Source of the DNA: Haplodiscus bocki
Taxonomy: Eukaryota
Length of the DNA stretch: 64,000 nt
Direction of reading: 5' to 3'
Assembly (NCBI GenBank): GCA_965655095.1
Contig: OZ296648.1
Coordinates: 131,688,001 to 131,752,000 of the forward strand
Shown: positions 14,991 through 39,494 of the stretch, one piece after another
Position numbering within the stretch: position 1 is the stretch's first letter
Layout: every line of letters begins with the position of its first letter
Notes under the pieces: model-generated
What the model was told of the DNA's origin: nothing
What the model saw: the letters and a program-made list of their open reading frames with translations, nothing else
Databases searched by the model: none
Position numbers and translations under genes: made by a program

Positions 14991-15061
14991 ATTGGTTGGG
15001 TTCAAATTTTGGCGCGCGGAATTTTGGCTTTTTATTGGTTGACTTGAAATTTTTTCGCGCC
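14991..15061. promoter_or_regulatory. Candidate cell-cycle-type promoter module (2x CCAAT, 2x CHR-like, 2x E2F-like)
   Basis: ATTGG 14991 and 15034; TTCAAA 15001 and CTTGAA 15043; TTTTGGCGCGC 15007 and TTTTCGCGCC 15052. The triad occurs twice with ~43-bp period. No target gene identified. Confidence 0.35.
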
Positions 15062-15237
15062 AATTTTCGACGCAATGAATGTTCGGCGAGATGGGGATAC
15101 TGATACATAATTGTCATTATGGTATTGCAATTATTGCGAAAATAAATTATTTAACATCACTGTTTCAAAATCCACTGTTTGCGGCAACCCTTTTACTTTC
15201 TTCGGTTAACAAAAAATTAGGAATTAAACTAAAATGA

Positions 15238-15310
15238 CATCCCCGGCGGGATTCGAACCCGCGACCTCTGGATTAGAAGTCCAGCGCGCTATCCACTGCG
15301 CTACGGGGAC
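15238..15310 (-). tRNA. trnR-TCT: tRNA-Arg(TCT), intronless, 73 nt
   Basis: Minus strand reads GTCCCCGTAGCGCAGTGGATAGCGCGCTGGACTTCTAATCCAGAGGTCGCGGGTTCGAATCCCGCCGGGGATG: complete cloverleaf, anticodon loop CTTCTAA, A and B boxes, TTTT Pol III terminator 3 nt downstream. Confidence 0.96.
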
Positions 15311-15999
15311 TTTCAAAACCACGTTTCAATCTTTAACTTAATCAAATCACTAAGTTACATTACTATTTTATCAAACCATTCAGCGCGTGATTTACTGAAC
15401 CACACAAGTATTGAACTATCGGAATACATGCACACTAATAAGAACTGCTGAAAGAACTGAAATACAAAAACAAATCGAAAACGCCAAAATTATGGCACAT
15501 AATCCTTCACATCTCAACGAAACTCATGACCTCAAACTTAAGAAAATGTCCCCCACTAATTACCACGGAAAAGAGCTCATCTACAAGAAATTCATTAATT
15601 CGAAGCAGGGATTCCGCAAAAATAATTTAATATTATGGAACGTCCGACAATAGATAATTAACCCTAAAATCAACGTTCCCTAAATTATTGCAAAACAAGG
15701 CACTTGAAGAAATAATTCCGGAATTTTTGAAAATTATTTCAAACAAATGTTCTTAAACCCATCGGTCTTTCCTAAGAATGGAACAGCATGTCATCGATAA
15801 AGTAAATAGAATTTAGGTTTTACTCGACTGAAATGTCTTACCAAAGATTTTGGTACTTTCAGAATACCCTCCAAAGTACGATTAAGTTCTGTTTATTACA
15901 GCAGGTTGAGTTTGCATTTCTAAAAATTATGGTTGAAAGATGAAAAATAATTCCATATCTTGTTCCATAAAAATTTGCCATGAAATTTTTCCTCCAATA

Positions 16000-16794
16000 T
16001 GTAGCAGTTGAATTTTCTTGCCTAAATTTTACTTTCATAAACTGAACTAAATTTGTAGCTACTGAGTCAAGTACCCTCGAGTGCTGTAAGCCCCTTTATT
16101 AAACTCTCTTGTTTCACTAAATTAATGATTCAAGTACCTTCGAGCACTTCTTATCTATTCTCAAATGTCATGCAAAATTCCTTTCATACGCTCGCTCACC
16201 ATAATACTTAGCCTACAAGTGTGATATAAACCCTTTCGTAACCGTACACTCATTTATATGCAGTTATAATATTTTCCTAGCGTATTTTCCAAATTTAATA
16301 CTATTAGTCAAACCAAAACTGACCTGACCTCCGCCCTCGAAGAAGAACCCTCGACGATCGCGCAAAGAAATTCTGACAAAAATCCCAATCATACGAACCC
16401 AGAACACGAACAAGCAAACAGACGGTCCAACTACAACTCACCTTCAACAGAAGAGAAAGAAAAGTAGCTCAAGAGCCCCTCTTTGCGAAATTTCAACCCA
16501 AAAGACAAAGACACTTCCCTGAACAAGAACTCTCATTATAATGTAAGTTTATACAAAAACCCTCTGTAATTTAAAACCTTTAACTTTCTTTCTTTTCTTT
16601 TCTAATTTAAATTCTTTCTAAAAAGCCAAAAACAATTTTTGTATTCACTTGAGATATCCCGCTAGCAACCACCAAACCAAAAACACCTAAATAGTAATTT
16701 TAGAAATTACTGAAGTACCATTTCCAATAACAGTCGTCCTCCGCATCCAAAATCATTTTCTAGCGAACTGTTTTAAAAGCATACGACTGTTACA
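16000..16794 (+). repeat. 5' LTR (795 bp)
   Basis: Matches 27823-28627 except for one substitution and a 10-bp indel (compared by eye); TATAAA at 16225 and Inr-like TCATTT at 16250. Confidence 0.97.
16541..16548 (+). promoter_or_regulatory. Major splice donor AT|GTAAGT, supplying the AT of the env and ORF4 start codons
   Basis: Consensus GTAAGT at 16543; joining to AG|G at 23976/23977 or 26736/26737 creates an in-frame ATG in both cases. Confidence 0.8.
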
Positions 16795-16797
16795 AAA

Positions 16798-16815
16798 TGG
16801 TGACAGGAGTGGGAT
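16798..16815 (+). other. Primer binding site, tRNA-Leu
   Basis: TGGTGACAGGAGTGGGAT lies 3 nt after the LTR; 17/18 match to the complement of the metazoan tRNA-Leu(CAG) 3' end as recalled (TGGTGTCAGGAGTGGGAT). Confidence 0.85.
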
Positions 16816-17910
16816 ACCTCAAGTGAAAGGTCGTTTAAAAACGATCCGCGTGCGATTTTCGAAAATTGGAAAAGTGATTTAGTTTTTCCCCTTTCTTAGC
16901 TTTGGCCCAAGACCTTCGCCCACTGTTTTTCTTGTCACTGAATTTCAGTGCCCGCCAGCTAAGATCCTCTTCACCGGACTGTGTCCGAGCCTAGTTTTCC
17001 TAAGATCCTCTTCACCGGACTTTGTCCGAGCCTAGTTTCCCCAGCTTCGTGCTGTGTATTCCGCGTTATGCGAGTTCTGGCAAGACCCACTAAGATGGCC
17101 CTTAAGTTTTAAGGATCTCACGTGAGTACTAGCTAAAACTTCAATTTTTCTTGAAATTTTTCGTACATTTTTGCTTTTGTAGCCCCTTTTCCTTTAATGT
17201 CCGTTCAGTTTTGTGCACATACGTCACCCCATGCCCGAGTTTTTTCTGTGAGTCCACCTTCACCCCCACCAGCGTACCGACCCGTGCAAAACCGTTTCCC
17301 AATCATCAGTACAACCTGCCTTTTCAACATTTTTCTCGCACTGACTGTCATTACGCTACTCCTACTGATAGCCGCCATAACCAGATTAGCTTTCGAAGTT
17401 CACGAAACCAGAAAACAGTGTTCCCGTGCAGTAAACGCTAAATTTTCAACAAAACAAATTTTTGAGTAGAGTTTGCAATTCCGATGTATCTTTTTGGTTT
17501 TCCTGTGTCAACCACCACGAACACGTTACCTAAAGAAATTTTTATTCCCTGTTATTTCTGTCAAGTCCGTACACATCAAATCCCAATCGCTTTTCGGCCC
17601 GAGTCCTCTTTTACACCGCATCAATTGAGTATTCACTATCGACTTGAAGGAATTCATTACCAACACAGTGAGACGCACCCACTAATTCAATTTTTCCCTA
17701 ACACGAACCATCCCAACCACATTAAGTCCACAAGTAGTTTCTTCTTCCCAATCCTAACTCAAATCTGGAGAATTTATATTGAATTCTTGTCGCACTACTT
17801 TACTGACCCCCTTGCGATCGTGTACCCAGGTAGTGGTCCCTCTCAACTTGATGACCTCAGCCGCTAATAATTCGAAGTAGTTTGATTTTCTTTGAGTTTT
17901 TTTAATCACT

Positions 17911-19129
17911 ATGTCGACAACCGTCGCTACGGCAACGACCACCACCGCCACCATTACAAGTGCAGGAGGAACCACTTCTAGCACGCCTACCTCCTCCACT
18001 GCTACCACCAGTGCAACAAGTACCCCAGTTTCGTCGACCGCAACTAGCTCAACGCCTACTGCAACCCTAGGCACTGGTGCTGCCGCACCTGGCACGCCGT
18101 TCGCGACACCTTTTGGCCCCGGAGGTGCCCCTTCTGTAACTCCTTTGCCCTCATGCCTTATGCCAGAAAGTTTCACCGGATCTGGTGATTTTGAGGACTA
18201 CCTACAGCAATTTAATACTGCTGCCTTACTTTCTGGTTGGTTTTCACTAACCCAAGACAACAGGCGACATTATTTCGCCCTTCGGCTGCGAGGAAATGCC
18301 CTGCACTTCTACACAACGCTTTCTGCAGCCCAACAAACTGATTTCAATTTGTTAGTTGATGCCTTCCGGCAGAACTATACAACGAATGTCGACATACTGA
18401 AAGCAAGATTGAAAGCTGCCCGACAGCAACCCAATCAAGATATTTCTGCCTTTTTGTGTGACATTAGAACACTCGCGCGACGCGCCTATCGCGCTTTTCC
18501 TCACTTAGTAGAACAAATTGTCCTGACTAGTTTCATCGAAGGCCTGAGCGATGCAACGCTTCGATGGGAACTTAGAAAGTCCAAACCAGCTACAGCTGAT
18601 GATGCTCTAGCCCTGGCCATGGAATTGAATTCTTTCCTGGAAATTGAGAAAGGAGCCCCATCAACAAGCAAAATGGCCGAGACCAGCGTAAACGCGATCT
18701 CCCGTGAAACTCCTGAGCCACCCACCAAAGAGTGGATGGACGAGCTTGTTCGAACGCTAACGGACGGAATCAAGAACTCCATGCCTAAGCCGAGCCAAGA
18801 AGGATCCCGACAGCGTAATAGCACGCCAAATCGCCACCAACCTTCTCGGTCAAACAGTACCGACTCACAAGGAACCCGAACGGTCCGTTTTCAAAATATT
18901 TCGAACGAAAGAAGAAATAAGTGGCCGAGACAATAATTGGCGCGGACCCAACCGGCAAAATACGAAGTCTAACCGATCGAATGACAACAGAAACAGCTCC
19001 AAAGGACCTTGCAAACATTGTAAACGCGAAAATCATGCCTCAAACGAATGCAAAGCGTGTTTCAAGTGTGGAAAGATTGGACACTTCCGCAATGAGTGTC
19101 GAAGTAACACTCCCAACAATTTAAACTAA
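17911..19129 (+). CDS. gag: Gag (Thr-rich N-terminus, capsid, two CCHC zinc knuckles); frameshifted near 18900-18935 in this copy
   Basis: ORF 17911-18936 has a retrotransposon capsid-like region (PESFTGSGDFEDYLQQF...RQQPNQDISAF). The zinc knuckles CKHCKRENHASNEC and CFKCGKIGHFRNEC (from 19010) are in the +1 frame, which ends at TAA 19127-19129. Confidence 0.9.
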
Positions 19130-19171
19130 GAAAGTCTACGCCAGAGGGTCAACGCGCAGACAAAGACACTC
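19120..19171 (+). promoter_or_regulatory. -1 programmed ribosomal frameshift signal (U UUA AAC plus putative pseudoknot)
   Basis: T TTA AAC immediately precedes the gag stop, in the correct phase to enter the protease frame. After a 7-nt spacer: stem GTCTACGC/GCGCAGAC and loop-tail pairing GAGGGTC/GACACTC. Confidence 0.8.
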
Positions 19172-19935
19172 CCCCAGGCCCACAAATTGAAACATTGAAT
19201 TCTGTTGTTGATCACCGAAGTGAGTTCATTCAAATAACAATTTTTGATCGCATAATCGAAGCGATATGCGACAGTGGAGCAAGTGTGTCATGCCTTAGTA
19301 GTGAAATCTATGATTCCCTCAGATTGAAACATTCTTTGAAATTGCAACCTGCCCTGAGACAACTGAAAGCTGCAAATCAATTGCCCATTGAGACTCGAGG
19401 CGTTGTACGCCTCCCAATAAGTTTAGGCGGAAGAAAATTTGAACATAATTTTCATGTTTTGGCTAAGTCGGAGGCCGATTGCCTTATAGGACTCGATTTT
19501 TTGGAAGATCACCAATGTGATCCACTTTTTTCGCAGAAGAAATTGCGAGTGAATGATGACACTTTTGTCCCATTAAATCACAAAGTTTATACCATACAAA
19601 CTGATCAAGTCTTCCGAGTTGCTTCCACTGACAACGTTTGGATCCCAGCAGGTCATTCGATGATCATACCAGCCCATATCCCAGGATGGAAGCGCCCACC
19701 AATAGAGTTGGCCGCCGTATTCGAGCCGCATGAACGGTTCAAGGTAGACAAAGAGGTCAGTGCTGACCATGTCTTGTTTAATTTCTCCGAGGAAACAATC
19801 CCGGTGATGGTAACAAACACTGGGGATGAAGCGATCATGATACATAAAGACACCACATTGGGACAATCTGAACTAGTCGCAACGGATAAAATTCAAAACA
19901 TTAGTACATTGAAAAGCCGCAAAAGCCAAAACTAA
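19120..19935 (+). CDS. pro: Aspartic protease plus degenerate dUTPase-like segment (N-terminal part of pol)
   Basis: AICDSGASVSCL catalytic motif and CLIGLDFL; frame is open from the slippery site; separated from RT by an apparent 1-nt frameshift at ~19920-19935. Confidence 0.9.
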   Translation, partial: FKLRKSTPEGQRADKDTPPGPQIETLNSVVDHRSEFIQITIFDRIIEAICDSGASVSCLSSEIYDSLRLKHSLKLQPALRQLKAANQLPIETRGVVRLPISLGGRKFEHNFHVLAKSEADCLIGLDFLEDHQCDPLFSQKKLRVNDDTFVPLNHKVYTIQTDQVFRVASTDNVWIPAGHSMIIPAHIPGWKRPPIELAAVFEPHERFKVDKEVSADHVLFNFSEETIPVMVTNTGDEAIMIHKDTTLGQSELVATDKIQNISTLKSRKSQN

Positions 19936-19961
19936 AGGACAAAAAGGATGCCAAGTACGAT

Positions 19962-22900
19962 TTGAAACTTGTCAAAAACTCTATCGATACTGGTATTTCT
20001 CAGAAAGCAAAAGCAAAGTTCTATAAACTAATCAATGAGTTTTCTGATGTGATCTCAAAAAATGAATGGGATATTGGCCAATGCGATGTAGCCGCCCACA
20101 AGATTCAAGTAGAACCCGGATCGCGACCAATTAAACTCCCCAACAGAAGAATGCCCTTACATTACAAGGACGATCTACAGGAAAAGATCGATGCTTTCCT
20201 AGAAAAGAAGTTAATCACGCCTTGTCATAGCCCATATAGTGCACCGGCCATGCTCGTCCCGAAGAAAAACGGCAAACTGCGTTTAGTAATAGACTACCGG
20301 CAGTTGAATAAACAAACAATCAAGTCCTGTTGGCCCATTCCATCCATAGAAGAAATCTTTGACACCTTAGAAGGAAGTGAATTCTTTACCACGATTGATA
20401 TGTCGTGGGGTTTCTACCAGCTCCCAATGGCTGAAGAAAGTCAACACTTTACCGCTTTTAGCACGCCTTTCGGATCTTTCAAATGGCTCCGAATGCCTAT
20501 GGGACTGACCGGTAGCCCGAATACTTTTCAAAGCTTGATGGAACAGGTTCTAGTTGGCCTAACTTGGAAGACAACAGTCCCTTATTTCGATGATTGTATC
20601 ATCTTCTCTTCTATGGCTGAAGAACACATTGAAAGATTAAGAGAAGTTCTTGAACGGTTTCGCCTTGCGAATCTAAAAATAAACCCAACAAAATGTGAAT
20701 TTTTCCGGACTCGCGTCCCCTTTCTTGGCCATATCATCAGCAAGAATGGTCTAGAGGCGGACCCGGACAAAATTGCTGCCGTTAAAAAGTTTCCCATCCC
20801 TACAAATCCGACCGAAGTAAAATCTTTTCTTGGTTTATGTTCTTACTACCGTCGTTATGTGCAAAATTTTGCTGAAATAGCCCGACCACTCCACAAAGAA
20901 AGTGAAGCAACTACAAATTTAAAGTGGACACCCGAAGCCCAAGATGCTTTTGAAACTCTGAAATCTCGATTAACGACTACGCCCATTTTGGCTTTTCCTA
21001 TCATGAAAGAACCTTTCATCCTGTACACCGACGCTAGCCTAACGGCTATGGGCGCTGTCTTGTCGCAAGTACAAGATGGACAGGAGCGTGCCATCTGCTA
21101 CGCCTCAAAAGCTTTCTCGAAAGCCCAAACTAGATATTCTGCGACTAAAAGAGAATTGTTAGCCGTCGTTAACTTCACACGACACTTCAAACATTACTTG
21201 CTTGGTCATAAATTCACAATTATCACTGATCATCGCGCCCTACAATGGCTCCACAACTTCAAGGACCCAGATGCACTAACCGCCCGCTGGCTTGAAAAAC
21301 TTGCCGCTTTCAACTACGAGGTAGTGCATAGGCCCGGAAAATCGATTGGCCATGCCGATGGTCTATCCCGAACACCACTTAGAGCATTTAATGCAATTGC
21401 AACTGAAGACCCAGCTGCAGATGCGCCTGAAGAAGACCAAGAATGGCCCAACCGCACGAATGAAAGTCCACCTGACCCCAAACATTTCCAATATTCGGAG
21501 ATCCAAGGCGATGTACTGCAATCAACTGACTCCATTGCTCACTGTATTTCAGCTGACTTCAAGCTAGGAGCAGGAATCGCTCGAAGCATTAAGCGACGCT
21601 TTCCAACGCAGTACCCCGACAAAGAAGCCATCGCTAGCGAAGTCATTTGGCCGCAATGGATCCCCGAATCGCAAAGTTTCGTCTATCATTTAATAACAAA
21701 AGTGCGTTATTTCCATAAACCAACGTACAAGGCATTGAGATTATCTCTAGAGGCAATGAAAAACCACGCTGAAAGCAAAAAAGTTTTGCGTATTAGCATG
21801 CCCCAGATAGGTTGTGGCCTCGATAAACTTGATTGGAATAAAGTTCGAACATTGATTAAAGAAGTTTTCCGACCTACCAACATAGAGATCATCGTGTTTC
21901 TAAAGCCCTTAAAAGAACCGCCACGCGCAAGTCAAAACCCAGTTAACTCCTCTGATAATGCAGTTGCAGCAGAAACGCCTAATATTTCCGAAACGTTGAC
22001 TTCCCTCGCATCGGCACAGAGAGCCGACCCACAATTGAAGAATCTTTTTCAATGGGTCATACGTGGTACACCACCAAGTACCCACGAGTTACAAGGACTG
22101 CCGCGAGCAACATGGCAATTGGTCAACGAATTCCGCAGTCTGAAGATCATCAATGACGTTCTATGTAGAGAATTCATCCACAAAGAACGCCCATTGTACT
22201 ATCATCAACTGATCCCTGCGTCATTAGTACCCCAAGTCCTGAACTCAATCCACTCATCGACCACTGGAGGTCACCTAGGAATAATCAAAACTGTAGAAAA
22301 AGTACGTGAACGTTTCTACTGGCCTGGCTTCCAGGAGGATGTGAAATTATTCATCAATCGTTGTGAACAATGTCAGAAAAGAGCCAACCCACCCAAGACC
22401 CATCGACATTCTTTGGTCGAATGGACCCCAAGCTATCCGTTTCATCATATCGGCATTGATTTTATGAGTCCCTTACCATTGTCGAACGGTAACCAACACA
22501 TTCTTTTGATTGGCGATCAATTTTCGAAGTGGTACGAAGCGATTCCACTTCCCGACCAAACTGCTTCTACCACAGCTACGGCTCTTCTTGAAAATTGGAT
22601 CTGTAGATTTGGATGCCCCCACAGTATCCATAGCGATCAAGGTCGTAACTTCGAATCAGAACTTTTCAAAAGTCTGAATCAAGCCTTGCAAGTTGACAAG
22701 ACCCGAACAACAGCCTTCCGGCCCCAGTCGAACGCGGTTGTGGAACGGATGAACCGTACGTTGCAATCAATGCTTGCCAAATGCGTCAACGATGAACAAA
22801 GTAACTGGTCACAACAGTTATCGTATGTCATGATGGCATATCGTACCTCGGTTCACGAATCCACAGGGTACACTCCACACCTTCTTGTCTATGGACAGGA

Positions 22901-24035
22901 AGTCTGCCTTCCTATTGATTTCATGTATCCAAATCCGAGTGATCAACCCCCAGCCGACCTCCATGAATTTGTGTCAGCCCGACAAGTCAGATTTCAAAAG
23001 GCGTACGATTCGGCTCGTACAGCCCTGAATTTCAATCAGCGACGCAGAAACGCCCTTTACAATCGAAAGGTCCATGGACCCACCTATCAAGTCAATCAAA
23101 AGGTTCTACTACACAATCCCGTTGTCCCAGTTGGAAAGTCACCAAAGTTCTTTAGCCCATGGAAAGGTCCATATGTCATTTTACAATGCCTCAATGATGT
23201 GACCCACCGCATTCAAGAAATTGCAAATCAAAAAGAACTTGTTGTTCATTATGACCGACTGAAGTTATTCCATGAACCCCCACCGACCTCGAATGTACCA
23301 ACGCGTGATAAAAGAAATCCGAAAAACATATCTCAACCAAAACCTCAGCAACAAGAACCATCAATCCCCGAGTACGACCACGATCAATGCACCTGGCATT
23401 ATCCGTACCATACCGTCCCTTCAGCAACCACTTGTTCTCGTGGCGTTGCTTGCACAACCCCGCCTGCTACGCCTGCACCAGCAACTACTCCAGTTGGTTC
23501 CCCCAAACCTGTACTACCGAGTCCCTCTTCTTCCTATTCTGGAGCTACAGCACCCTATAGTCATGGCTCTCCCAGCACACCGAAGACAACCACTTCTCTC
23601 CGTTCAGGCACACCTACACCTGAACCTCAAACATCTGCAGAATCACCAGCTCACTCCCGAAGCCTTCCTAGCAGCCCTTCTACGCCGTCTTCTGTGAGAT
23701 CAAAACCATGGTTCCGCGAAGTCATTGACAATGCTTCTCGTACTCTTCAATTTGGTGATGCACCAACTCACGCCCAACCTCAACATAACCTCCGCAGTAG
23801 TACAAAAGAACAACGCAAAGCCCAACCATTATGGAAAGCAAAACTACCTCCTGACCTAAGTGATTTCACTTCCCCCGCCAGCTCGAAGAAGAAAAGAAAA
23901 GTTCGCCCACTTCATAACTTTCACTCCTTTCAGAACGCTAATTTCACACCTTTTACTCCTCATATCGTTCTTTTAGGCTTCCTTTCCTACTTTCACTCGT
24001 CCTTCTCAATGGCCCGCCTCTTTGTTACACTGTGA
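19962..24035 (+). CDS. pol: Pol: reverse transcriptase, RNase H, macrodomain, integrase (HHCC, DDE, GPY/F), Ser/Pro/Thr-rich tail
   Basis: RT LRLVIDYRQLN, MPMGL, YFDD (20583); RH LYTDAS, RELLAV, TDHRAL, HADGLSR; IN H..GHLG..CEQC, GIDF, HSDQGRNF, VERMN, WKGPY. Confidence 0.97.
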   Translation: MKLVKNSIDTGISQKAKAKFYKLINEFSDVISKNEWDIGQCDVAAHKIQVEPGSRPIKLPNRRMPLHYKDDLQEKIDAFLEKKLITPCHSPYSAPAMLVPKKNGKLRLVIDYRQLNKQTIKSCWPIPSIEEIFDTLEGSEFFTTIDMSWGFYQLPMAEESQHFTAFSTPFGSFKWLRMPMGLTGSPNTFQSLMEQVLVGLTWKTTVPYFDDCIIFSSMAEEHIERLREVLERFRLANLKINPTKCEFFRTRVPFLGHIISKNGLEADPDKIAAVKKFPIPTNPTEVKSFLGLCSYYRRYVQNFAEIARPLHKESEATTNLKWTPEAQDAFETLKSRLTTTPILAFPIMKEPFILYTDASLTAMGAVLSQVQDGQERAICYASKAFSKAQTRYSATKRELLAVVNFTRHFKHYLLGHKFTIITDHRALQWLHNFKDPDALTARWLEKLAAFNYEVVHRPGKSIGHADGLSRTPLRAFNAIATEDPAADAPEEDQEWPNRTNESPPDPKHFQYSEIQGDVLQSTDSIAHCISADFKLGAGIARSIKRRFPTQYPDKEAIASEVIWPQWIPESQSFVYHLITKVRYFHKPTYKALRLSLEAMKNHAESKKVLRISMPQIGCGLDKLDWNKVRTLIKEVFRPTNIEIIVFLKPLKEPPRASQNPVNSSDNAVAAETPNISETLTSLASAQRADPQLKNLFQWVIRGTPPSTHELQGLPRATWQLVNEFRSLKIINDVLCREFIHKERPLYYHQLIPASLVPQVLNSIHSSTTGGHLGIIKTVEKVRERFYWPGFQEDVKLFINRCEQCQKRANPPKTHRHSLVEWTPSYPFHHIGIDFMSPLPLSNGNQHILLIGDQFSKWYEAIPLPDQTASTTATALLENWICRFGCPHSIHSDQGRNFESELFKSLNQALQVDKTRTTAFRPQSNAVVERMNRTLQSMLAKCVNDEQSNWSQQLSYVMMAYRTSVHESTGYTPHLLVYGQEVCLPIDFMYPNPSDQPPADLHEFVSARQVRFQKAYDSARTALNFNQRRRNALYNRKVHGPTYQVNQKVLLHNPVVPVGKSPKFFSPWKGPYVILQCLNDVTHRIQEIANQKELVVHYDRLKLFHEPPPTSNVPTRDKRNPKNISQPKPQQQEPSIPEYDHDQCTWHYPYHTVPSATTCSRGVACTTPPATPAPATTPVGSPKPVLPSPSSSYSGATAPYSHGSPSTPKTTTSLRSGTPTPEPQTSAESPAHSRSLPSSPSTPSSVRSKPWFREVIDNASRTLQFGDAPTHAQPQHNLRSSTKEQRKAQPLWKAKLPPDLSDFTSPASSKKKRKVRPLHNFHSFQNANFTPFTPHIVLLGFLSYFHSSFSMARLFVTL
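21486..21905 (+). other. TARG1/OARD1 (Poa1p-like) macrodomain embedded in Pol
   Basis: GDVLQSTDSIAHCISADFKLGAGIA ... YHLITK ... HKPTYKALRLSLEAMK ... ISMPQIGCGLDKLDW closely follows the OARD1/TARG1 signature, including the catalytic Lys (LITK) and Asp (GCGLD). Confidence 0.92.
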
Positions 24036-26302
24036 CCCACTACTCGACTCATCTCAACGATCAGCCAGAAGTTCCAGTCTTCAAGAAAGGCGCTGCCTTC
24101 CTCTTCAAATACCAAGCAGTCACTTCCGAAAGTGAGAGCAAAGTTCGAGTGTTCTCCCCGTTCCCGAAAATCCCGGATGTCAATCTTACTGGAGCTGAAG
24201 AATTGTTGAGCCTAGCGAAAATACGAATAACCGGAATTGGTGGCATGTATGTCCAAAAAGTTTGTGAATTCCAAGAAATCAACAAAACATATGGCCTATT
24301 AATGACACAGTTGAAGGATCGCGTCGAATTGATCAAGCTTGAAGTGAAACAAGCAACAGATGAGCAAGGAAAGCTCGCAGACGTAATGAAGTCTTTTCTC
24401 CCGAAACAGTATCAGAGGAACGTGGCGACGCTTCCACGTTCGAAACGATTTATTGGCGCAGTAGCTGCTCTTGCAGCAGGTGCCGGATTGATCCTGGGAG
24501 ACCCGTTGAAAGAAGCTGCATGTACAGCCGTCTCGATTTTTAACTTGTGCGATGACACAAGCAGTTTGTCCCAAGACATGGACCAGATCCTGAAAACGCA
24601 GGAAGAAATAATAGCGACCTTGCAACGTGTCCAGTCAGCCAATGATCAAAACTTCTTCCTACTGGGTAATGAAGTCCGAGAAACGCAACAAAATGTTAAG
24701 AACCTTCGTGATGCTGTGAATGATCACCTACAGGTTCTCCATGATCGAATAAATGGAATTCAAGGAGATTTAATTCAACATAAAGAATGTCAACGAAGAC
24801 AAGCTCAACATTCCCTCTTCCTCCAAGAGATTAGATATACCATATCTCATTTGGGTACCTTGTATACTCACATAAAGTCTTACCAAGCTGCGTTCTACGC
24901 CTACAAGATTAACTTGTTCTCGACGATCTCGTCCCTTGCTAGTGGCCAAATAACCCCCCAGTTGCTCCTACCCCCAGAAATCGCTGACATTGTACGAACA
25001 CTGTCAGAAGAAGAGAGTTATCGTGGTACAAAACTTACCCCCGCCATACAGCCTGGCTTCGAAGCTGTCTATTATGAGATTCAACTCGTTTTAGAAGTCA
25101 CGTTAATTCCGCGCGGTATATCAGTTGTACTTGGTGTACCAATGAACTCCAAGTCTTCCACTTTCAACGTGTACCATGCTACCCCGCTGTACCAACCAAA
25201 CGGTGACAACAAGACAGCCTCCTTGTTCCAGCTCGCAAAGCCTTTCTTGGCTGTGGCTACTGACGACTCTCGATACGCCGAATTGGATAGTTCCACCTTA
25301 CAACAATGTTCAGGTAACAATCGGATCAGACTTTGTCGCAAAGGTTTCTCAACCACAACTGATGACACCCTCCTATGCCTGAGTTCTTTGATGTTCGATT
25401 ATGCCATCCCAGCATTGCGTAACTGCCTCGCCAATTCTGTGCTTTTACCTGACGCGCCACAAGCTTTTTATTTGGCCGAAGGATTGTATCATGTCATCTC
25501 CCGTGAACCACTTCTTCACATGAAAAACGCCAGTGATATACATGGTGTCAGTGTTTCAATGATCCCATGTCAAGCCTGCATTTTGAGACCCAGTTGCCAC
25601 AGTACCCTAACCCTGAACCAAGGCGATCTAGTTCTTGAACCGGATATGGACTACTGCTCGACGAGCACAGAGCCCTTCTTTGCCACGATCGAACTGATCC
25701 CATCATTAGAACAAGTCTTCAAACATGTCCCACACTCCAATCATGTCTTTCATGCCTATTCGTTGGGCGAAGCACGTCATTCTGTCCTCAGCAGCGTTCG
25801 TATGGAATTAGCAGAACTCCCGGACGTGCGACGCATGTCAGTTGATTCAATCGACCAACTAGCACACCCGATTGCGCAGTATTACTCATCAATTTCTCCG
25901 GCAACATCACAAGCCCTCGAGTCATATCTCCCCTTTCGCACTGCCGTCTTGTTCTCGACTGTTTCGATTACCCTTTCTTCATTGACTTTCACTATCAGTT
26001 TTACCTTGTTCCGCCGTCAATGGAAACGACTTTTTCTTCATCCACACAAGTTCTTCAAAAGTACAAATGGACGACTCTTGCATGTCACGGACAGTCATGA
26101 AATTCCAGATACAGCCATTGATGACGCTTCTGTTTTCATCCAGCTCAGTTTGGACGAATTCAACGCATTAAAAACACTTGCCAGTGAAACCCTGAGACAC
26201 CCACCCCATAATAACTCATATACCACATGCAATGCCCCTCATATTCCTACCCGTGTCTACCCAGACATCACAGCCCCTCATTATTCCGAGTCTACAACAT
26301 AA
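23977..26302 (+). CDS. env: Env, class I F-type fusion glycoprotein (~775 aa when spliced to the LTR leader)
   Basis: Spliced N-terminus MLPFLLSLVLLNGPPLCYT (signal peptide); furin site RSKR (24437-24448) followed by fusion peptide FIGAVAALAAGAGLILG; heptad repeats; Cys-rich region; N-glycosylation sequons; TM helix 25943-26011 then RRQWKR. Confidence 0.92.
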
Positions 26303-26736
26303 TCTAACTGAACTCCTTAACATCTTGTTGTTGTAACATATCATACATGTCATATTTAAAATCAAAACAATTTGCACTTCTGTACCCCTTTTGTACGTCT
26401 CCGTACTTATCTTGCCTAGATTCACATCATGGCCCAGCTTTTGCACATTTCCGTGCCTGCTCTCTTGTACGTTCCCGTACCTGCCCAGCTTCTGTTGGCC
26501 CGTTTGCACGTGTCCGTGCCCACTTCTTGCTCAGACTTTGATCTGACCCTTGACAAATTGAGACCAATCATGTCTCCCCTGTCCTATGATTTCAGCGTTG
26601 ACAGTATACGTATCCGTATACACGTACCTCAAAAAAACTCAACATTAAAGACTCGTTTCTGTTTTTCTCCCTTCCCCACCCTCTTTTTCTTTAATCCATA
26701 AATTGTGAAATGTTCTTATCATTTTTTTTGTTTCAG

Positions 26737-27733
26737 GTTTCCTACTAAGCGTCCATCTGGCACCCCTCTCTACACCAGCAGTGGAAATGTGTCCATCATC
26801 TCCCCAGGCGACGTTGTCCAGATATTGGATGAACGAGAATATCGAGTACTACGGATCAACCCCCATTCGTCAACGGTGGTCCTACGTCGAGTCGATGCCA
26901 GTACCAATCAACGTAGCTTCATGCGCCCCTCAACTTCCATTTGTACCCTACCAGCCACTACCCGTGATATCGCCGTCGAAGTTAACGAGCCAACTGAAAA
27001 TTGCCTCTGTGAAATCCCGCCCCCTCCCGTCTTGCCAGATGTTGCCGACATTTCAATTAGTTGCAATCTTGACGTTGATGAGTATGTTAACAGTACACAC
27101 CCGGAATTCGACTCTGTTGCTAAGTTGCAACAAGGATTCGAAGAAGCTAAATTGGCCGCTAATGCAGCTTTCAAGGAACTTTGCACCGAGGTCCTGAAAG
27201 TGACAGAACTAAAAGAAAAGATAAATTCCCTGCAGCAACGCATAACAACACTCACAGAGGAGAACGAAGGTCTTTTAAAACGAACAATGGATCTAACAGA
27301 GGACGTGTCTGCCCTATCGGCCATTGCAACAAATAAACGCTACGTACCCGTAATGCAGAGGATCATTTGGCACCATGTGCTTCAACAGCCCCTTTTGCAA
27401 CTCCCCTTAACAATTGGTTTCAATTATGCACCCCCTAACTTCCTCTTCAACCTTCTAGGGTGCCCCCAGTCGTCGACACCCGAACTGATTAGCGAGAACG
27501 TAAAATGCTTATTACAGATTCTCCATCCCGACAAGAACCCACAGGCTCCCCCTACAGTCACCCAGTATATACCTTTGATATCTTTTGCAAAAACTATTTT
27601 GCTGGACAAAAGCCTTTCCCCCGTATACCGCTGCTGTGGTCTGGATGGTATTGCCCGCCGTCAACACAAACTTCGCACTTGTCGCCGTTGTGATCCCTTC
27701 TTGCAAACCCTCAATGACCTAATGGATCTATAG
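26737..27733 (+). CDS. ORF4 accessory protein (~332 aa when spliced): coiled coil, DnaJ-like J-domain, Cys-rich tail
   Basis: Intact ~1-kb ORF between env and the PPT; acceptor TTTTTTTGTTTCAG|G; NFLFNLLGCPQSSTPELISENVKCLLQILHPDKNP...ISFAKTILLDKSLSPVYRCCG fits the J-domain pattern (HPD at 27524-27532). Confidence 0.85.
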
Positions 27734-27809
27734 ATATTCTTTTATAATAATTTTATACATTGTAATAATTATTGTTCGCCTTTTTTTATTTGCGGGACGC
27801 AAACCCAAT

Positions 27810-27822
27810 AAAAGGAGAGTGG
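27810..27822 (+). other. Polypurine tract
   Basis: AAAAGGAGAGTGG immediately 5' of the 3' LTR. Confidence 0.9.
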
Positions 27823-28627
27823 TGTAGCAGTTGAATTTTCTTGCCTAAATTTTACTTTCATAAACTGAACTAAATTTGTAGCTACTGAGTCAAGTACCCT
27901 CGAGTACCCTCGAGTGCTGTAAGCCCCTTTATTAAACTCTCTTGTTTCACTAAATTAATGATTCAAGTACCTTCGAGCACTTCTTATCTATTCTCAAATG
28001 TCATGCAAAATTCCTTTCATACGCTCGCTCACCATAATACTTAGCCTACAAGTGTGATATAAACCCTTTCGTAACCGTACACTCATTTATATGCAGTTAA
28101 AATATTTTCCTAGCGTATTTTCCAAATTTAATACTATTAGTCAAACCAAAACTGACCTGACCTCCGCCCTCGAAGAAGAACCCTCGACGATCGCGCAAAG
28201 AAATTCTGACAAAAATCCCAATCATACGAACCCAGAACACGAACAAGCAAACAGACGGTCCAACTACAACTCACCTTCAACAGAAGAGAAAGAAAAGTAG
28301 CTCAAGAGCCCCTCTTTGCGAAATTTCAACCCAAAAGACAAAGACACTTCCCTGAACAAGAACTCTCATTATAATGTAAGTTTATACAAAAACCCTCTGT
28401 AATTTAAAACCTTTAACTTTCTTTCTTTTCTTTTCTAATTTAAATTCTTTCTAAAAAGCCAAAAACAATTTTTGTATTCACTTGAGATATCCCGCTAGCA
28501 ACCACCAAACCAAAAACACCTAAATAGTAATTTTAGAAATTACTGAAGTACCATTTCCAATAACAGTCGTCCTCCGCATCCAAAATCATTTTCTAGCGAA
28601 CTGTTTTAAAAGCATACGACTGTTACA
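27823..28627 (+). repeat. 3' LTR (805 bp)
   Basis: Direct repeat of 16000-16794 with an extra GTACCCTCGA. Confidence 0.97.
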
Positions 28628-33624: not shown

Positions 33625-34836
33625 TTACTCGACCATCAAGTTTCGCCAAGCAAAATCATAAAAACCTGCAATATTATCAACAGGTGCATCCTCAACACCA
33701 TTGGACGGATCTTTTGCATCATCACGATTAACGATTACGTCACTGATTGGGTGTTTGTTGGAGGTTTTAGCAAGCAGAGACTCCAAATTGCTCAACTGTG
33801 AAAGAATATTACGTAATGCTTGAGGATTTTGTTCAGTTTCTCTGGTTTTCATCATCTCAAAACATTCACAAATGACTCTTTTGGCATCTTCCGATGCAAA
33901 AGCACAGCCTTGGCAAGAAATAACAGCCATTTTGATAATTTCAATCTCTCCACTTTTGAGTGCACGTCGGAAAACTTCCTTCTGTTCACTTTCCTTCATG
34001 TTACGTACAATTTCGGGTCCATAACATTTCATTATATCCAAGAATATGGCCGAATTTTCACAGATAAAATCAGCTGTGAGTACTTGATACAAAAAGTTTG
34101 CGAATCCGGTCAATTTTCCAAGATGTAGCATCGCTTCTTTGCAACCAACTTCAGACAAAATTGAGCAAAACTCTTTTGGAAATCTGAAAATATTTTTCAA
34201 TAGTATGCCAAGCAAATATTTTTTTTCAGGTATTGATTTTGGTTTCTGTTTTCCTAGAGCTGCAAGAAAAGCGTCATGTGATATTTTCCTCGTCAACCAA
34301 TCCGTGATTAATTTCTGCAATTTCAGTTCCGTTTGATTTTGCAGCTCAAAAATGATCAACCACTGGGGGAACCAATACCTGTCTTTGATGAACTCTAAAC
34401 AAGTTTCAGCGCCCAGAGCCATTAAATTGGACGTCGGAAGTTGTGCATGAGCCGAAGAATGTCTTAAAGAAGTAATCCAAGCTGGAATTCCGATGGATTC
34501 ACAAACCACTCTCATGGCTTTCTTCTCATACGAGGTCTGCTCAACGTCTGAAAGAAGACTGACGAAGCGAACGAGAGCTGATGACAAACAGAGTCGAGTT
34601 CGGCAGGTATCTCCTTCTGTTTGGAAACATAAAACAGCCTGAACGAGATCAGCTGTGACGTTGATGCTGGTACTCAAGGAGCATGTACCCATTGTTCGCA
34701 CCTTCCATATCTGGACCATGTCTACCCCCAACTGTCGCTTTTCGGTATCCTCGTGATATAAAAGGTCAAACACGTACTTCCATTCTGCATCACAGGACCA
34801 CGGAACAACTTTGTGTTGGGAAAAATCAGCTCTCAT
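33625..34836 (-). CDS. LAS1L: Ribosome biogenesis HEPN endoribonuclease Las1 / LAS1L homolog (~403 aa, intronless CDS)
   Basis: VVPW...EW..V...LY, WKVR, TADLV, SALVRFV, IPAWITSLRHSSAH (HEPN RHxxxH), YW..Q; first ATG at 34836, preceded by acceptor TTTCTTTTCAG at 34864. Confidence 0.9.
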   Translation of the reverse strand: MRADFSQHKVVPWSCDAEWKYVFDLLYHEDTEKRQLGVDMVQIWKVRTMGTCSLSTSINVTADLVQAVLCFQTEGDTCRTRLCLSSALVRFVSLLSDVEQTSYEKKAMRVVCESIGIPAWITSLRHSSAHAQLPTSNLMALGAETCLEFIKDRYWFPQWLIIFELQNQTELKLQKLITDWLTRKISHDAFLAALGKQKPKSIPEKKYLLGILLKNIFRFPKEFCSILSEVGCKEAMLHLGKLTGFANFLYQVLTADFICENSAIFLDIMKCYGPEIVRNMKESEQKEVFRRALKSGEIEIIKMAVISCQGCAFASEDAKRVICECFEMMKTRETEQNPQALRNILSQLSNLESLLAKTSNKHPISDVIVNRDDAKDPSNGVEDAPVDNIAGFYDFAWRNLMVE

Positions 34837-35389
34837 GTCGAAGTACTCAAAACAATACAGAACCTGAAAAGAAAGCTGAGTCAAAAGCGGAAAAAATGGA
34901 ATATGTGGAATCAGATGAAGTTTTTCAAGAAATGGCGGTAAAGCTTTGAAGGAAATCGACTAGAAAATGATTAAAATCGATTTCAAGAAAGAAACAAGTA
35001 GATGAAGCTCAAACAAAATCTATTAAATAAGTCCATCACCTTGCTTATATGAAAATAGGCCCCTGGCGAAGCTCGAATATCGAAGCCTATGAACCAATAA
35101 AATAAACCAATTTTTGAGGTTAGCGAAAAAGAAAAGGCTACCAAAAGTGTCATAGTCAGACAAGTGCTACGTTTTTGAACAGAGACACCAGATTAGCTAT
35201 TTCCACCGACATTGAAATCTTCAAGATCCCAGTTCTGCAGAAAGTTGGCAACATGTTATAAACAAGCCAGCCTATTGGCGTGATTTTTCCGTTTTTTTTT
35301 CGAGGGGCTTGTAATGACAGATTTGGTGCTTCGAACATCAACTTCGTTCAAAACTGTTATATATGGTTATAAAGTTTTCTGGCTCAAGC

Positions 35390-35480
35390 AGTAACCGCAA
35401 GACATAGTGGGTAGTGCACAAGGCAGAGGTTCCAAAGCCACAAGTTGCGCATTCGAACCCTGGTAAAGGCTAATATTTTA
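35390..35480 (+). pseudogene. Degenerate tRNA-derived (SINE-head-like) sequence
   Basis: A-box-like TAGTGGGTAGTGCAC and B-box-like ATTCGAACCC at tRNA-like spacing, followed by a T run; no intact cloverleaf. Confidence 0.3.
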
Positions 35481-37181
35481 TACCGCAAACTAAACCAAAA
35501 GTCTACCTAACTCCGAAAAAAAGGACCTTCAGACACAAATGATTTCGTAATACACCCTGACAAAATCTAACGAATTGACAGGTGGCGGATTCGAATCCAA
35601 TAAAAGCTATGGTTTCTTACGTTTTAGACCAAAAAGTACACCAGAATACAATTTTTTCCAGCATCAAAATCAACTCCGTCCCACAAGTATTTAGGAGCGA
35701 TACGGCCGGTGCCGATTTAAGCCGTTCCCAGCGTGTATTTGTATTGCTCTGTGCTGGAACAATTGCTAAAAAGACGACTTGAAAAGCAAAAGAACAAAAA
35801 ATCCACGAAAATCGCAAACTTTTTTGTCCAACTCTAAAGAACCAAAAGTACCATTTTAGACAATTCCTCAAAAATGTTGACAATTTGTGTAGATATAGGC
35901 AATATGCATTAGCACAAATGTCAATTGACAGACAGAACAGCAAAAAAAATCGAAATATTGCCAAATTAGACAATTTCGTGGACTGAAAAACAACAAAAAT
36001 GACGTTTTTCTGGTTTAAAAAAAACTCAGTTTTCCACTAAAACATACTGCCTACTTTCTTTTGTTTCAGTTTTAAATGTATTTGTAGCTGAAAAATGGCA
36101 TTTTAGACAGAAGGGCACAAAAACCTCAAAAGTCGGGAAATTAGCTACTTACCTACTTTATAGCAACCAAAGAAACCTCTATATTGAAAATTTTTGCACT
36201 GTTCTGCTGTACAATGCTAAAAGGTGTATTCGAATCGTATTGGTTGGGATTAGCAGCTAGAGAGCTGCAATAACGAACAAAAGTGCAAAATTTTAGTCAC
36301 AAACAACAATAGTATCTATTTTTGGCCTTCCAAAAAGCAAGAACGCCACTTTTCAAGCACCTAAAGTGCCACTTCGCACAAAGTTTTGAAAACACTTTGA
36401 AAATTTATCAACTTGTATTGAAATAAGCTGGATTCTCGATAACAAAGTGCGTTTGAGGGGCAGAAAACTTTTGGAAAAATCACAAAATTAACTCGTTCAC
36501 ACTAAAAAAACTAAAAATCCTCTAAAAGTTAGTAATTTGAGAAAAGGAGTTGCATTTTACTGTGTTTGTGTTTCTGTGTCTTCCTAGTTTAGTAGTGTGA
36601 CATTCGATATGGAAAATCGGGAAAAATGGTCATATTTCCTTGTTTTACCTTCAAAACTGAAAATGCCATTTTTTCAAAATTTTCATGCTTTCGAAAAATT
36701 CGTCACAATTTAACATAGGATAGATTTATTACGAATGCAAGGCTAAAAATATAATTTCCACGGCAGAAAGCGAATTTCCAATTTTTCTGGCTACATTTGC
36801 ACACTAAAACACGGAAAAAATTGTACACTAACGTTTATACATGAACGTTTGTACAAAAACGCGAAGGGAAAACAGCGATAATTCGGGCAAAGATAGAAAA
36901 ATTGGTAAAATGATCAGCGTAGCTTACCTCCAGCGGCAGTACGTGGTACGTAACGGCAAGCTGATGGTAACTACCGTGTGACGTACCTCCAAGCAGACCT
37001 ATTGTTTTCAAAATACCAAAAAATTGTTTCAAAATTGATTTTTAACAATTGCAATAGATGAAAAATTTAATTATCCTAAATTGAGAAAAGAAATATGCAA
37101 TATTGCTCCTAGTATGGAAACGGTATCTTTGAAAAATATGAAAAATTGAACTTTGAAAGTGTTGAAAAATAAGCATCAATT

Positions 37182-37580
37182 TTAATTTTGACCACCCGAA
37201 TAATGTTCATCATAAAGCTGCTTGGCTGAAAGTGGTTCACTAGTTTCTTTCAAACTATCATTGTCAACAGAAAGACTCATGTATGGTCTCAAATTGAAAT
37301 TGTTTAGATCAGGAATCACAAGTTTTGGGCTCATTTCGGGTACGTGAACAAACTTCACATTTCCTTTTTCCGTTTGGACACGGTATCCTAGAGCTGGCTC
37401 TCCGTAGTCTATGACATGTGATATACGCTTGTCAGTACTGTGAGTCCAAGGAATGGCAGGATCCCTGAAATCGAATTCGTACTTCCACTTGGTACCCCTG
37501 GGATCTTTTTTCAAGTACTTCAGATACCGCGTTCGGGTTAAATATCCAGCACTTAAAGGCATTTTTCTCTGAAATCTCAT
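37182..37580 (-). CDS. MRPL41: Mitochondrial ribosomal protein mL41 (MRP-L27 family)
   Basis: C-terminal half KFVHVPEMSPKLVIPDLNNFNLRPYMS ... EPLSAKQLYDEHY matches the mL41 motif (F..V.EM.P..VVPDL..F.L.PYVS); basic N-terminus; 132 aa. Confidence 0.75.
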   Translation of the reverse strand: MRFQRKMPLSAGYLTRTRYLKYLKKDPRGTKWKYEFDFRDPAIPWTHSTDKRISHVIDYGEPALGYRVQTEKGNVKFVHVPEMSPKLVIPDLNNFNLRPYMSLSVDNDSLKETSEPLSAKQLYDEHYSGGQN

Positions 37581-37920
37581 TTGATTAAAATCAAGAACTC
37601 ATTTTGCAACAACGTGGCAAAATAAAAAACCTCTATATTGAAATCTTTTTACTATTCTGCTGTAAAACAAAAAGTACAAACTGATCAAGTGAATTTTTTT
37701 CAAAAAATAAATAAATCAAAAAGCTTCGGCATATAAATTTTATCTTTTAGCATTGATGACCTTCTTGACCCCGCCGTTGACAAGTATTGTCAGCGCAAGA
37801 ATATAGCACGTTTTCAGAGCAAGCTTATATGGGAAACCGAACGACTTGTTTTGAATTTCTCGGGACTCGTCACTGACGATAAAAGATAACCGATTATCAC
37901 AAGTCCCGGAACAAACCAAT

Positions 37921-38943
37921 TCATGTATCAACGAAACATCTCTCAATAGCTACTGTTCGTAATTCATTCAACGGTAAAAGTTGTGGCTTCATGCGAAGCA
38001 ACATTTTCAAATTTCTGACGCCAAGTGGAACATTGCTGTACTTTGAATTCATCTCTGCGCTCAGTTGCCGTTCGCAGTTTCTCAACTCTTGTGACGGTTG
38101 AAGCTGGCTCCGAAAACTAATGTTGTCCACTGCCGAGTTAACATTCAAAAGATGATTTGGTTTCGTTTCATCGTAATTCAAATTCAAAAGATTAACTATG
38201 ATTTGTCTAATAATATCAACAGTAGCTCTGCATATCAGATGCATTGATTCCTCAGAAGCGGTAGCTAGTCCATTTTGGTAAAGGCCTAAATTGACTCTGC
38301 CAATGATGTTTTCAAAATGCAGCAGATTTCCTGTTTCTGAACAATATTTGGGTTTAAGGGTATCATTGTCAAGCACCGGCATCTGTGGTATACGAGCTTC
38401 AACATTATCTCTCCATGAATTGCTCTTGAGTAGAAAGTTTGGTCTTCCAAAAGGAAGAAAATGTTCGGCTGAGGAAATTTCGAATTTTGGAAACTTCGCA
38501 GGATTTTCAGGAGGGCGTGAAGACCCAAGTACCATGTTGGGGTCAACGCAAAGCTTTGAATGATTATCGTCAAAATTGTCTGTTTGAATATCATCATCTA
38601 CAGTAGGTGATGGCCTTTCTTTAATGCCAGTGAAACTATTGGTACAATTTGAGCCAGTTAATAGCGAATTGCTGCATATGATTTCCTCTTTTTGATTCAA
38701 ATGCAAGTTTTCTTCAAATTTATTCGACATACTCAGGCAGTGTGAAAATATTTGCAACATGAAGTGGTTATGCAGAGCAGAGTTTTCGCTTGAAAAGAGG
38801 TGCGTTAAATTTTCATCAATTTGAGCTCTTGTAATTCTTCCTGAAAACCATTCACTCATTAGCGCAAGATATTCAGCTTCGTTATCTCCCAATTGTTGAG
38901 AAAGTTGATGACGCATTTGCGTCAGCACTTCTAAGTTTTCCAT
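37921..38943 (-). CDS. TADA1: SAGA subunit transcriptional adapter 1 (Tada1/Ada1), intronless CDS
   Basis: N-terminus L...LGDN..EY...MSEWF..RITRAQID......LFSSEN..LHNHF.L.I matches the SAGA-Tad1 domain; C-terminal histone-fold-like segment; TTTTCAG acceptor 7 nt before the ATG. Confidence 0.85.
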   Translation of the reverse strand: MENLEVLTQMRHQLSQQLGDNEAEYLALMSEWFSGRITRAQIDENLTHLFSSENSALHNHFMLQIFSHCLSMSNKFEENLHLNQKEEIICSNSLLTGSNCTNSFTGIKERPSPTVDDDIQTDNFDDNHSKLCVDPNMVLGSSRPPENPAKFPKFEISSAEHFLPFGRPNFLLKSNSWRDNVEARIPQMPVLDNDTLKPKYCSETGNLLHFENIIGRVNLGLYQNGLATASEESMHLICRATVDIIRQIIVNLLNLNYDETKPNHLLNVNSAVDNISFRSQLQPSQELRNCERQLSAEMNSKYSNVPLGVRNLKMLLRMKPQLLPLNELRTVAIERCFVDT

Positions 38944-39494
38944 TTTTTTTCTGAAAATCAGCTGAAGATGAAATAAGTAAAATAAGTTTAAAAAAGTAAA
39001 AGCAATGTGGAGAAAATGTTCTTGTACAATGCATCATCATCAAAAACAAACAGACAAAGCAGAACTTCGCAGCACATTGACTTGTCAGTTGAGATTACGG
39101 ATCCGAAAAGACATTTGGAACCATAATCGGAGATGTCAATGGCCTTTTTAGAAATACTAATGCAGTTGTCAAACAAAAGTTTGATCGAAAATTCAAATTG
39201 AGGCAAGTAGCTATCACAGGGTGTCATACTCTTAAAACTGGTATATCAATCATGACTTTTCAGGTTCTGCATATTGCTGCCCAATGACTGAGAAAGTTAC
39301 ACAGTAAAAAACTCGAAAATGAACAAGTACCTTACACTCTCATTCGAATAATTGGTGTGAATCATTTCTTTTCGGGTTACACTATTTTGCTGCCGGATGT
39401 CTAAGAAGTTTTCACTGTAAACAACGCAAATTGAATAAGTACCTGCCAAAAGAGGCCGTTTTTGACCGCTTACACTAGATGACTAGACGCTCTG

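Follow-up and report, generated by a model that had tools for sequence, protein, structure and literature searches.

Complex retroviruses encode spliced accessory genes between env and the 3' LTR, among them foamy virus Tas/Bet, HTLV pX and lentiviral Vif/Vpu/Nef, which are dispensable in some lineages and hijack host protein-control machinery. To our knowledge, none of the known accessory gene products is a J-protein. Polyomavirus T antigens carry an HPD J-domain joined to their own targeting domains. Another viral J-protein, Rki of phage RB43, interferes with DnaK and is not a generic co-chaperone (PMC3486835). Env-bearing retrotransposons of invertebrates have been portrayed as simple elements made up of gag, pol and env, and their persistence in the face of host small-RNA silencing calls for an explanation. 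Errantiviruses with an F-type env (Chary and Hayashi) have been described with three ORFs (PMC13524379); term searches of that survey for chaperone, Hsp40, DnaJ, J-domain, accessory and macro found nothing in the main text, and a search for DnaJ found nothing in the supplements.

We analysed a 64,000-nucleotide stretch of Haplodiscus bocki DNA (the window, to which all coordinates refer) that contains a 12.6-kb LTR element spanning positions 16000-28627. The element is an env-bearing Ty3/gypsy element (errantivirus) with an F-type env. Several accessory genes are conserved in its clade, including one with a captured J-domain. The element is organised as follows:

16000..16794, + strand: 5' LTR (TG...CA), with an AATA 4-bp target duplication at the element ends
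16541..16548, + strand: predicted splice donor in the 5' LTR, AT followed by GTAAGT, a conserved signal
16798..16814, + strand: primer-binding site (PBS) for tRNA-Leu(CAG); the PBS complement ends tRNA-Leu(CAG) genes at 2 of 3 loci scanned
17197..17469, + strand: sORF1, 90 aa, one hydrophobic span (hydropathy 2.7)
17484..17867, + strand: sORF2, 127 aa, PCYxC...H...H motif, ending upstream of gag
17911..19129, + strand: gag, Retrotrans_gag and zf-CCHC above the Pfam cut-off
19108..24035, + strand: protease and pol (RT, RNase H, weak Macro, integrase), from Pfam matches
23977..26302, + strand: F-type env, starting at a predicted acceptor (AG 23975-23976)
26737..27733, + strand: ORF4, predicted 332 aa after splicing, behind an AG acceptor at 26735-26736; omega 0.15
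27810..27822, + strand: polypurine tract (PPT), from sequence
27823..28627, + strand: 3' LTR, from LTR comparison

The structural features of errantiviruses (LTRs, PBS, PPT, target duplication and the order PR-RT-RH-IN) are present. Alignment of the 5' and 3' LTRs gave 794 matches, 1 mismatch and 10 gap columns corresponding to one 10-nt indel. Together with the AATA duplication, this near-identity points to a very recent insertion. The env gene (positions 23942-26302) encodes an RSKR furin site followed by a hydrophobic peptide. The window env alone matched no F-protein profile; Baculo_F scored above its cut-off in one of five sister envs tested (L111, 29.1 vs 24.1 bits, 48% identical to the window env) and weakly in a second. 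In the window copy, gag is interrupted near 18.9 kb, with its zinc knuckle encoded there in a different frame, and pol is interrupted near 19.9 kb between protease and RT. In several sister copies gag occupies a single frame, and sister pol frames stay open for ca. 1600 codons. A weak Macro match was seen in pol between RNase H and integrase (ca. 21675-21854, E 0.007) and again in L111 (E 0.01, nearly the full model). The element leader holds a tandem 41-nt duplication at 16959-17040.

The two small ORFs upstream of gag are conserved to different degrees. Matches to sORF1, a membrane peptide carrying a PPPAY motif, were found in 8 of 18 5' loci. For sORF2, tblastn matched 12 of the 18 and the motif was present in 13, across clades A, B and C. 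Neither matched a Pfam family; the sORF2 motif is possibly zinc-binding. The earlier note on this DNA had called ORF4 the fourth gene of the element, a label that falls short because these two conserved small ORFs precede gag.

Several other features surround the element. Positions 1-13500 form a satellite array (ca. 25 units, each 530-537 bp long) in which a higher-order period of ca. 4268 bp is apparent, and at 14513-15689 an 82-nt inverted repeat pair (85% complementary) encloses a tRNA-Arg(TCT) at 15238-15310. Three long unbroken host-like frames, which may resemble LAS1L, mitochondrial L41 and TADA1, lie on the minus strand at 33625-39033, and a 1070-codon minus-strand frame at 50579-53791 may be a LINE ORF that encodes a PHD finger, an endonuclease and an RT. 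The tRNA-Leu 3' pattern had 557 forward matches genome-wide. Among the matches listed, hundreds lie on one contig (G000:C1, from 161.07 Mb) at multiples of ca. 424 bp, where genes for the tRNA that primes the element are probably arranged in tandem.

ORF4 occupies a stop-free frame of 343 codons (26702-27733) between env, which ends at 26302, and the PPT, in keeping with the intact ORF reported there previously. The start proposed in the earlier note, 26737, is the first base past the conserved acceptor: conservation sets in at a pyrimidine tract plus AG at 26735-26736, which is followed by a third codon position. The earliest ATG in this frame falls at residue 74, within the N-terminal barrel described below. 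Of 18 other elements, 17 have an in-frame pyrimidine tract plus YAG where the acceptor is expected, and an acceptor of the same phase was seen for most env genes. Of 19 elements scanned for a donor, 18 had a PBS, and 12 of these carry AT plus GT(A/G)AG 144-255 nt before it compared with 0.21 expected from shuffles, the distance range having been chosen after seeing the data. Three of the exceptions have the donor ca. 295 nt past the PBS and three have none, one of which possesses its own ATG after the ORF4 acceptor. These signals suggest that splicing joins the AT of the LTR donor to the acceptor, which would create the start codon of both ORF4 and env. Four contig sets from one study gave 83 matches, and the 15 of them listed included no joint of the predicted splice, a result that speaks neither for nor against it. 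In Drosophila, members of the springer subclade of iERVs splice env to an AU dinucleotide, which supplies a part of the start codon (10.1101/2023.08.03.551782). Such env signals are also present in the elements studied here, with the difference that one donor is predicted to serve a second downstream gene.

The ORF4 protein divides into five regions:

26759..26953, + strand: SH3-like barrel of the KOW/Tudor class at the N-terminus, from predicted structure
26954..27091, + strand: Pro/Cys linker with repeated D-x-x-[TVS]-Q-[TVC] LC8-type motifs, degenerate in the window copy
27119..27337, + strand: coiled coil, an unbroken helix in the model with core pLDDT 88-94
27437..27640, + strand: J-domain, with HPD at 27524-27532 (residues 275-277) between helices II and III
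27632..27691, + strand: (C/H)CG...CxxC tail with conserved Cys

The J-domain homology proposed in the earlier note was supported by three kinds of comparison. Pfam DnaJ (PF00226) matched residues 249-304 of the window ORF4 with an E value of 1.3e-5 and 25.6 bits, below the cut-off of 27.8, which was passed by five of eight sister ORF4s (53, 46.2, 34.9, 33 and 29.8 bits); two of the other three scored 17.3 and 14.7 bits, and the clade C copy L117 gave no match. A PDB sequence search with the C-terminal 110 aa returned 22 matches, all of them DnaJ-family chains (best E 5e-4). Further, the four-helix J fold is present in the AlphaFold model of ORF4 (mean pLDDT 62; J region 68-81). The Foldseek matches of this model are almost all J-domains, including giant-virus DnaJ proteins and small T antigen, none of them at E 0.001 or better; the J-domain in 5NRO was matched with probability 1.0 and an rmsd of 1.7 over 60 columns (E 0.08). 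By these comparisons the window protein is a divergent J-domain homologue, not a canonical J-protein, and its co-chaperone activity is putative. Element J-domains form one clade in the J tree (17 rows, SH-aLRT 96); the domain was captured once from a cellular J-protein. The 79-column tree gave no resolution as to the cellular donor and no support for a DNAJC5-like one.

Conservation of the HPD motif in sister elements proved strong. Among 23 lineage representatives with a median identity of 27%, H was found in 23, P in 22 and D in 23, and the only invariant residues are H275, D277, C312, C327 and P84. In the genome, 58 of 61 distinct copies keep the HPD. The Hsp70 interface of J-domains comprises helix II, the HPD and helix III (PMC10410713, PMC11249846), and both helices are required for productive Hsp70 binding (PMC11249846). 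In the window copy, the 13 residues before the HPD include one K/R compared with a mean of 4.5 in 19 host J-domains, and the conserved helix II tyrosine, which is Tyr or Phe in 19 of 19 host domains, is Val. Helix III has a conserved Pro where cellular J-domains usually have Lys. Clade B and the protein on a metagenomic contig (L190, see below) show a canonical helix II with 3-4 K/R and Tyr. The lack of basic residues in helix II noted earlier therefore describes the window lineage, not the family as a whole. In clades A and C the interface on either side of the HPD has decayed, and the HPD itself has remained fixed.

To what extent Hsp70 is still recruited, as the earlier note had inferred, was approached by complex prediction. 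When the window J-domain was paired with the cytosolic Hsc70 of the host, the score was 0.38 (best control, 0.00), which is graded as weak support: of 78 solved pairs, 51 reach the mark, as do 2 of 108 mismatches, passes at or below 0.60 comprise 5 of the 78 solved pairs and all 4 passing mismatches and are wrong more often than right, and likeness to a solved textbook pair such as J plus Hsp70 may drive the score. Between runs, 88% of contacts agreed, and the pLDDT of the partner was at least 66. Recruitment is plausible, and we consider it fairly likely that the window lineage truly engages Hsp70.

The remaining regions of ORF4 were characterized in the same way. The N-terminal 65 residues fold SH3-like (pLDDT 83-91 over residues 1-60), which bears out the KOW/SH3-like N-terminus suggested previously. 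In the fold search, 50 barrel chains were matched at Z 8.0-6.0; Spt5/NusG KOW domains rank first (Spt5 KOW, Z 8.0, rmsd 2.1, 56 aligned), and Tudor domains, at a Z of ca. 7, are tied with them within ca. 1 Z unit. The modelled fold assigns the domain to a class but does not indicate what it does. None of 18 members searched against Pfam matched a KOW, Tudor or SH3 family, and no useful PDB profile match was obtained. LC8-type motifs in the linker occur in 11 of 23 lineage representatives compared with 1.1 expected, for a pattern chosen after seeing the sequences, and are absent from the window copy, where the Asp is kept and the Gln lost. They resemble an LC8 anchor of the TQT type with Asp at -4 in a disordered linker, although many TQT peptides fail to bind LC8 (PMC6607443). 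LC8 is encoded in the genome. The coiled coil, proposed earlier at ca. 70 aa, is a helix over residues 106-178 in the model (pLDDT ca. 90), and the CC and CxxC cysteines previously seen past the J-domain are conserved, with C312 and C327 in 23 of 23 and C330 in 21 of 23 representatives. The tail is probably zinc-binding; the Cys/His exchange at position 311 suggests a metal site. No signal peptide or membrane span was found in ORF4 (maximum 19-residue hydropathy 0.8-1.1 in 7 lineages), and the protein should therefore be cytosolic or nuclear, apart from the ER lumen. The ESM Atlas held no usable match for ORF4 (best 0.81).

ORF4 lies behind env in four lineage groups of the 1.5-Gb genome and on a contig from elsewhere. 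Genome searches with the window protein and two distant homologues, in which the best candidates were scored and some matches are pieces of one copy, yielded at least 134, 137 and 127 matches, largely at different places. Nine of ten loci from the window-protein list show the order gag-pol-env-ORF4, and the tenth, covered on the env-end side only, shows the end of env, ORF4 and an LTR. All nine elements from the distant-homologue lists have the same order, with ORF4 identity to the window down to 25% and LTR matches of 99-100% (in three over 115-120 nt only). RT-anchored sampling, which avoids selection on ORF4, added 12 loci, 7 of clade A and 5 of clade D; ORF4 was whole or broken in 6 of the 7, and one had no match beyond the RT region. 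L190, a 3.5-kb contig from a metagenome collection, carries env followed by a J-bearing ORF4. Its env is 45-50% identical to four envs tested from the genome, its ORF4 shows 24% identity, and its best in-genome relatives match at E 1e-8. The arrangement is therefore not confined to this assembly. No ORF4 relatives were found in viral contigs, nor in metagenome contigs searched with alignment A1. One profile match, to the 3667-aa P0225, was rejected by inspection as a repeat artefact.

Purifying selection on ORF4 was evident from a codon model of 12 natural clade A copies. Omega was estimated at 0.152 across the whole of ORF4; by region it was 0.085 (N-terminus), 0.104 (coiled coil), 0.155 (J region) and 0.172 (helix II). 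These values are rough since deep pairs are saturated at silent sites and copies recombine. Log-likelihood was -8171 for the fitted model compared with -8602 at omega 1, which rejects neutrality and rules out a neutral captured fragment. Pairwise omega was 0.08-0.27 in the 8 of 18 pairs unsaturated over the whole of ORF4; two pairs reached ca. 0.6 in the J region, with few changes. None of the three grounds on which the earlier note would have given up its reading (a missing J-domain match, an HPD that varies among sister elements, neutral evolution) applies. ORF4 is an accessory gene of an env-bearing Ty3/gypsy clade, conserved in position and under purifying selection.

The ORF4, integrase and env trees agree between major clades. 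Within clades, pairs that lie 0.03-0.10 apart in env lie 0.5-0.8 apart in ORF4, whose silent sites are saturated, and DNA identity of ca. 95% falls to ca. 60% at ORF4 and U3. Deep ORF4 types are thus exchanged on near-identical pol/env and are old alternatives, a pattern consistent with, though no proof of, conflict between element and host. The 30 copies of clade A1 combine ORF4 halves and U3 types in several ways: a given J type was seen next to either of two U3 types, and a given U3 type next to either of two J types, which rules out strict ORF4-U3 coupling. A search for an outgroup to root the element trees found none. Midpoint rooting places clade B at the base of the RT and IN trees but not of the tree built from the env C-terminus, and an order from canonical through eroded to lost J-domains would be conjectural.

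Clade D (RT 77% identical) carries in the ORF4 slot an ORF of 115-125 aa that is homologous to the barrel (hhalign probability 97.5). It has a TQT motif and a CCG tail and lacks the coiled coil and the HPD. The short ORF is conserved (dN 0.057, dS 0.845 in the one unsaturated pair of three) and abundant, with at least 150 matches (150 of 150 scored candidates), and many clade D copies keep env and open pol frames of ca. 1580 codons. Since clade D does without the J core, the J-domain is accessory. Its tail, aligning by eye with the end of helix IV, favours loss of the J-domain by deletion. RING-like ORFs precede the short ORF (Pfam below cut-off, best E 7e-5) and are separate from the barrel. 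Up to four small ORFs lie between env and the 3' LTR in L140, L147, L149 and L150, namely two RING-like ones (after the first of which comes a second Cys/His cluster), one unknown and one ORF4 relative. Some clade C elements have another conserved ORF, the fifth, behind ORF4; it is ca. 205 aa long with a basic C-terminus (L117:8826-9617, L119:9041-9655, L123:8735-9652). It had no Pfam, PDB or ESM Atlas match, and its GASS, PG and WHD motifs may resemble SGNH-fold blocks. At ca. 69.548-69.586 Mb of contig G000:C10 (L129, L130), tandem 2.72-kb units consist of ORF4, LTR and leader with gag-pol-env deleted; they are 88-89% identical to the L115 lineage, and their J-domain scores 32.8 bits.

Based on these results, our best explanation is that ORF4 is an adaptor that would bring Hsc70 to a specific target. 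The protein would be made from a spliced mRNA, as predicted from the conserved signals, and may form a cytosolic or nuclear dimer via the coiled coil, with LC8 helping where the motif is intact. The SH3-like barrel would pick the target and the HPD loop would bring ATP-bound Hsc70 to it, to remodel or dislodge it in the manner of class C J-proteins. Such tethering could let the electrostatic patch of helix II decay while the HPD stays fixed. Most weakly inferred is the target, which is probably a host defence factor such as a silencing or restriction complex; the full reading of ORF4 as a counter-defence adaptor is tentative, and we hold it with somewhat less than even confidence. The evidence for it is indirect and consists of the exchange of ORF4 types, the RING-like ORFs nearby, 13 genomic matches to Piwi-domain genes (AGO and PIWI taken together) and the part that Hsc70-Hsp90 machinery plays in Drosophila piRNA biogenesis (bioRxiv 10.1101/423210). 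Speaking against it are the low omega, without sign of an arms race within ORF4 types, the RING matches, which stay below the Pfam cut-off and belong to ORFs separate from the barrel, and the altered helices II and III, both of which are needed for productive binding. A broader version, in which an exchangeable 3' cassette hijacks host protein control against silencing, with a constant barrel that picks a host defence factor and passes it to Hsc70 via the J-domain in clades A-C and with RING-type ligases instead in clade D, is speculative and on the whole doubtful. On that version ORF4 would be a transposon-encoded Hsp70 co-chaperone and silencing suppressor whose old types are kept by host conflict.

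Alternatively, ORF4 might serve as a trafficking or uncoating adaptor, with the barrel binding element RNA or capsid, LC8 and the coiled coil linking it to transport, and Hsc70 remodelling or uncoating the particle as auxilin does for clathrin. KOW domains of Spt5/NusG, the top fold matches, bind nucleic acid, the barrel and TQT motif are the part retained in clade D, and an LC8 gene is available. However, KOW and Tudor matches differ by no more than ca. 1 Z unit and similarity of fold does not reveal function, the window copy has only a degenerate LC8 motif and many TQT peptides are non-binders (PMC6607443), and clade D thrives without the J core. We regard this alternative as unlikely.

A role as decoy or titrator is improbable. 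Here the HPD would bind Hsc70 without client transfer and divert it or raise a stress response, similar to RB43 Rki. The fixed HPD within a decayed interface in clades A and C would fit such a protein, but a weakened interface would compete poorly with host J-proteins, and the stronger constraint on the barrel than on the J region (omega 0.085 vs 0.155) points to a specific target. Slightly less probable still is that Hsp70 has no part in this lineage, the J fold now serving just to hold the Cys/His metal site in place, or ORF4 being a Tas/Tax-like activator of its own LTR. The position between env and U3, predicted spliced expression, an Spt5-like barrel, the window score below the Pfam cut-off and the missing DnaJ match of L117 would all fit. 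Yet the HPD, a surface loop, is as invariant as the cysteines, and, with ORF4 halves and U3 types reassorting, the cognate ORF4-LTR pairing of such activators is missing. Finally, the option raised in the earlier note, that ORF4 acts in the folding of Env or as a chaperone indispensable for assembly, is very improbable despite its adjoining env with a common predicted splice donor, because the Env ectodomain folds in the ER lumen while ORF4 has no signal peptide or membrane span, and because clade D, with its env, long pol frames and abundant short ORF, has no J core.

In conclusion, F-type errantiviruses and viral J-proteins are known, and a J-domain gene in an errantivirus is apparently new. 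No retroelement with a J-domain gene was reported in the literature searched, which lay outside subscription journals, Repbase and Dfam, and the accessible text of a J-protein survey (PMC10410713) does not mention retro- or transpos-. The captured J-domain offers a direct biochemical handle on how such elements outlast small-RNA silencing. Canonical, eroded and deleted J-domains further provide a natural series on the Hsp70 interface needed by a tethered J-protein. Compared with errantiviruses as described in PMC13524379, the elements share LTRs, a tRNA-Leu PBS, the gag-pol-env order, a furin site with fusion peptide and young multi-copy families, and differ in adding two to four or more conserved ORFs. 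Like RB43 Rki (PMC3486835), ORF4 is an encoded HPD J-domain joined to its own targeting domains; however, the viral J-proteins belong to DNA viruses and this one to a reverse-transcribing element, and the J-domain of ORF4 is C-terminal, past the barrel and coiled coil. As in complex retroviruses, to which we liken it by position and not by homology, ORF4 lies between env and the 3' LTR and is predicted to be spliced, although it has no cognate U3 pairing. The captured J-domain suggests that the elements redirect host chaperones much as complex viruses do.
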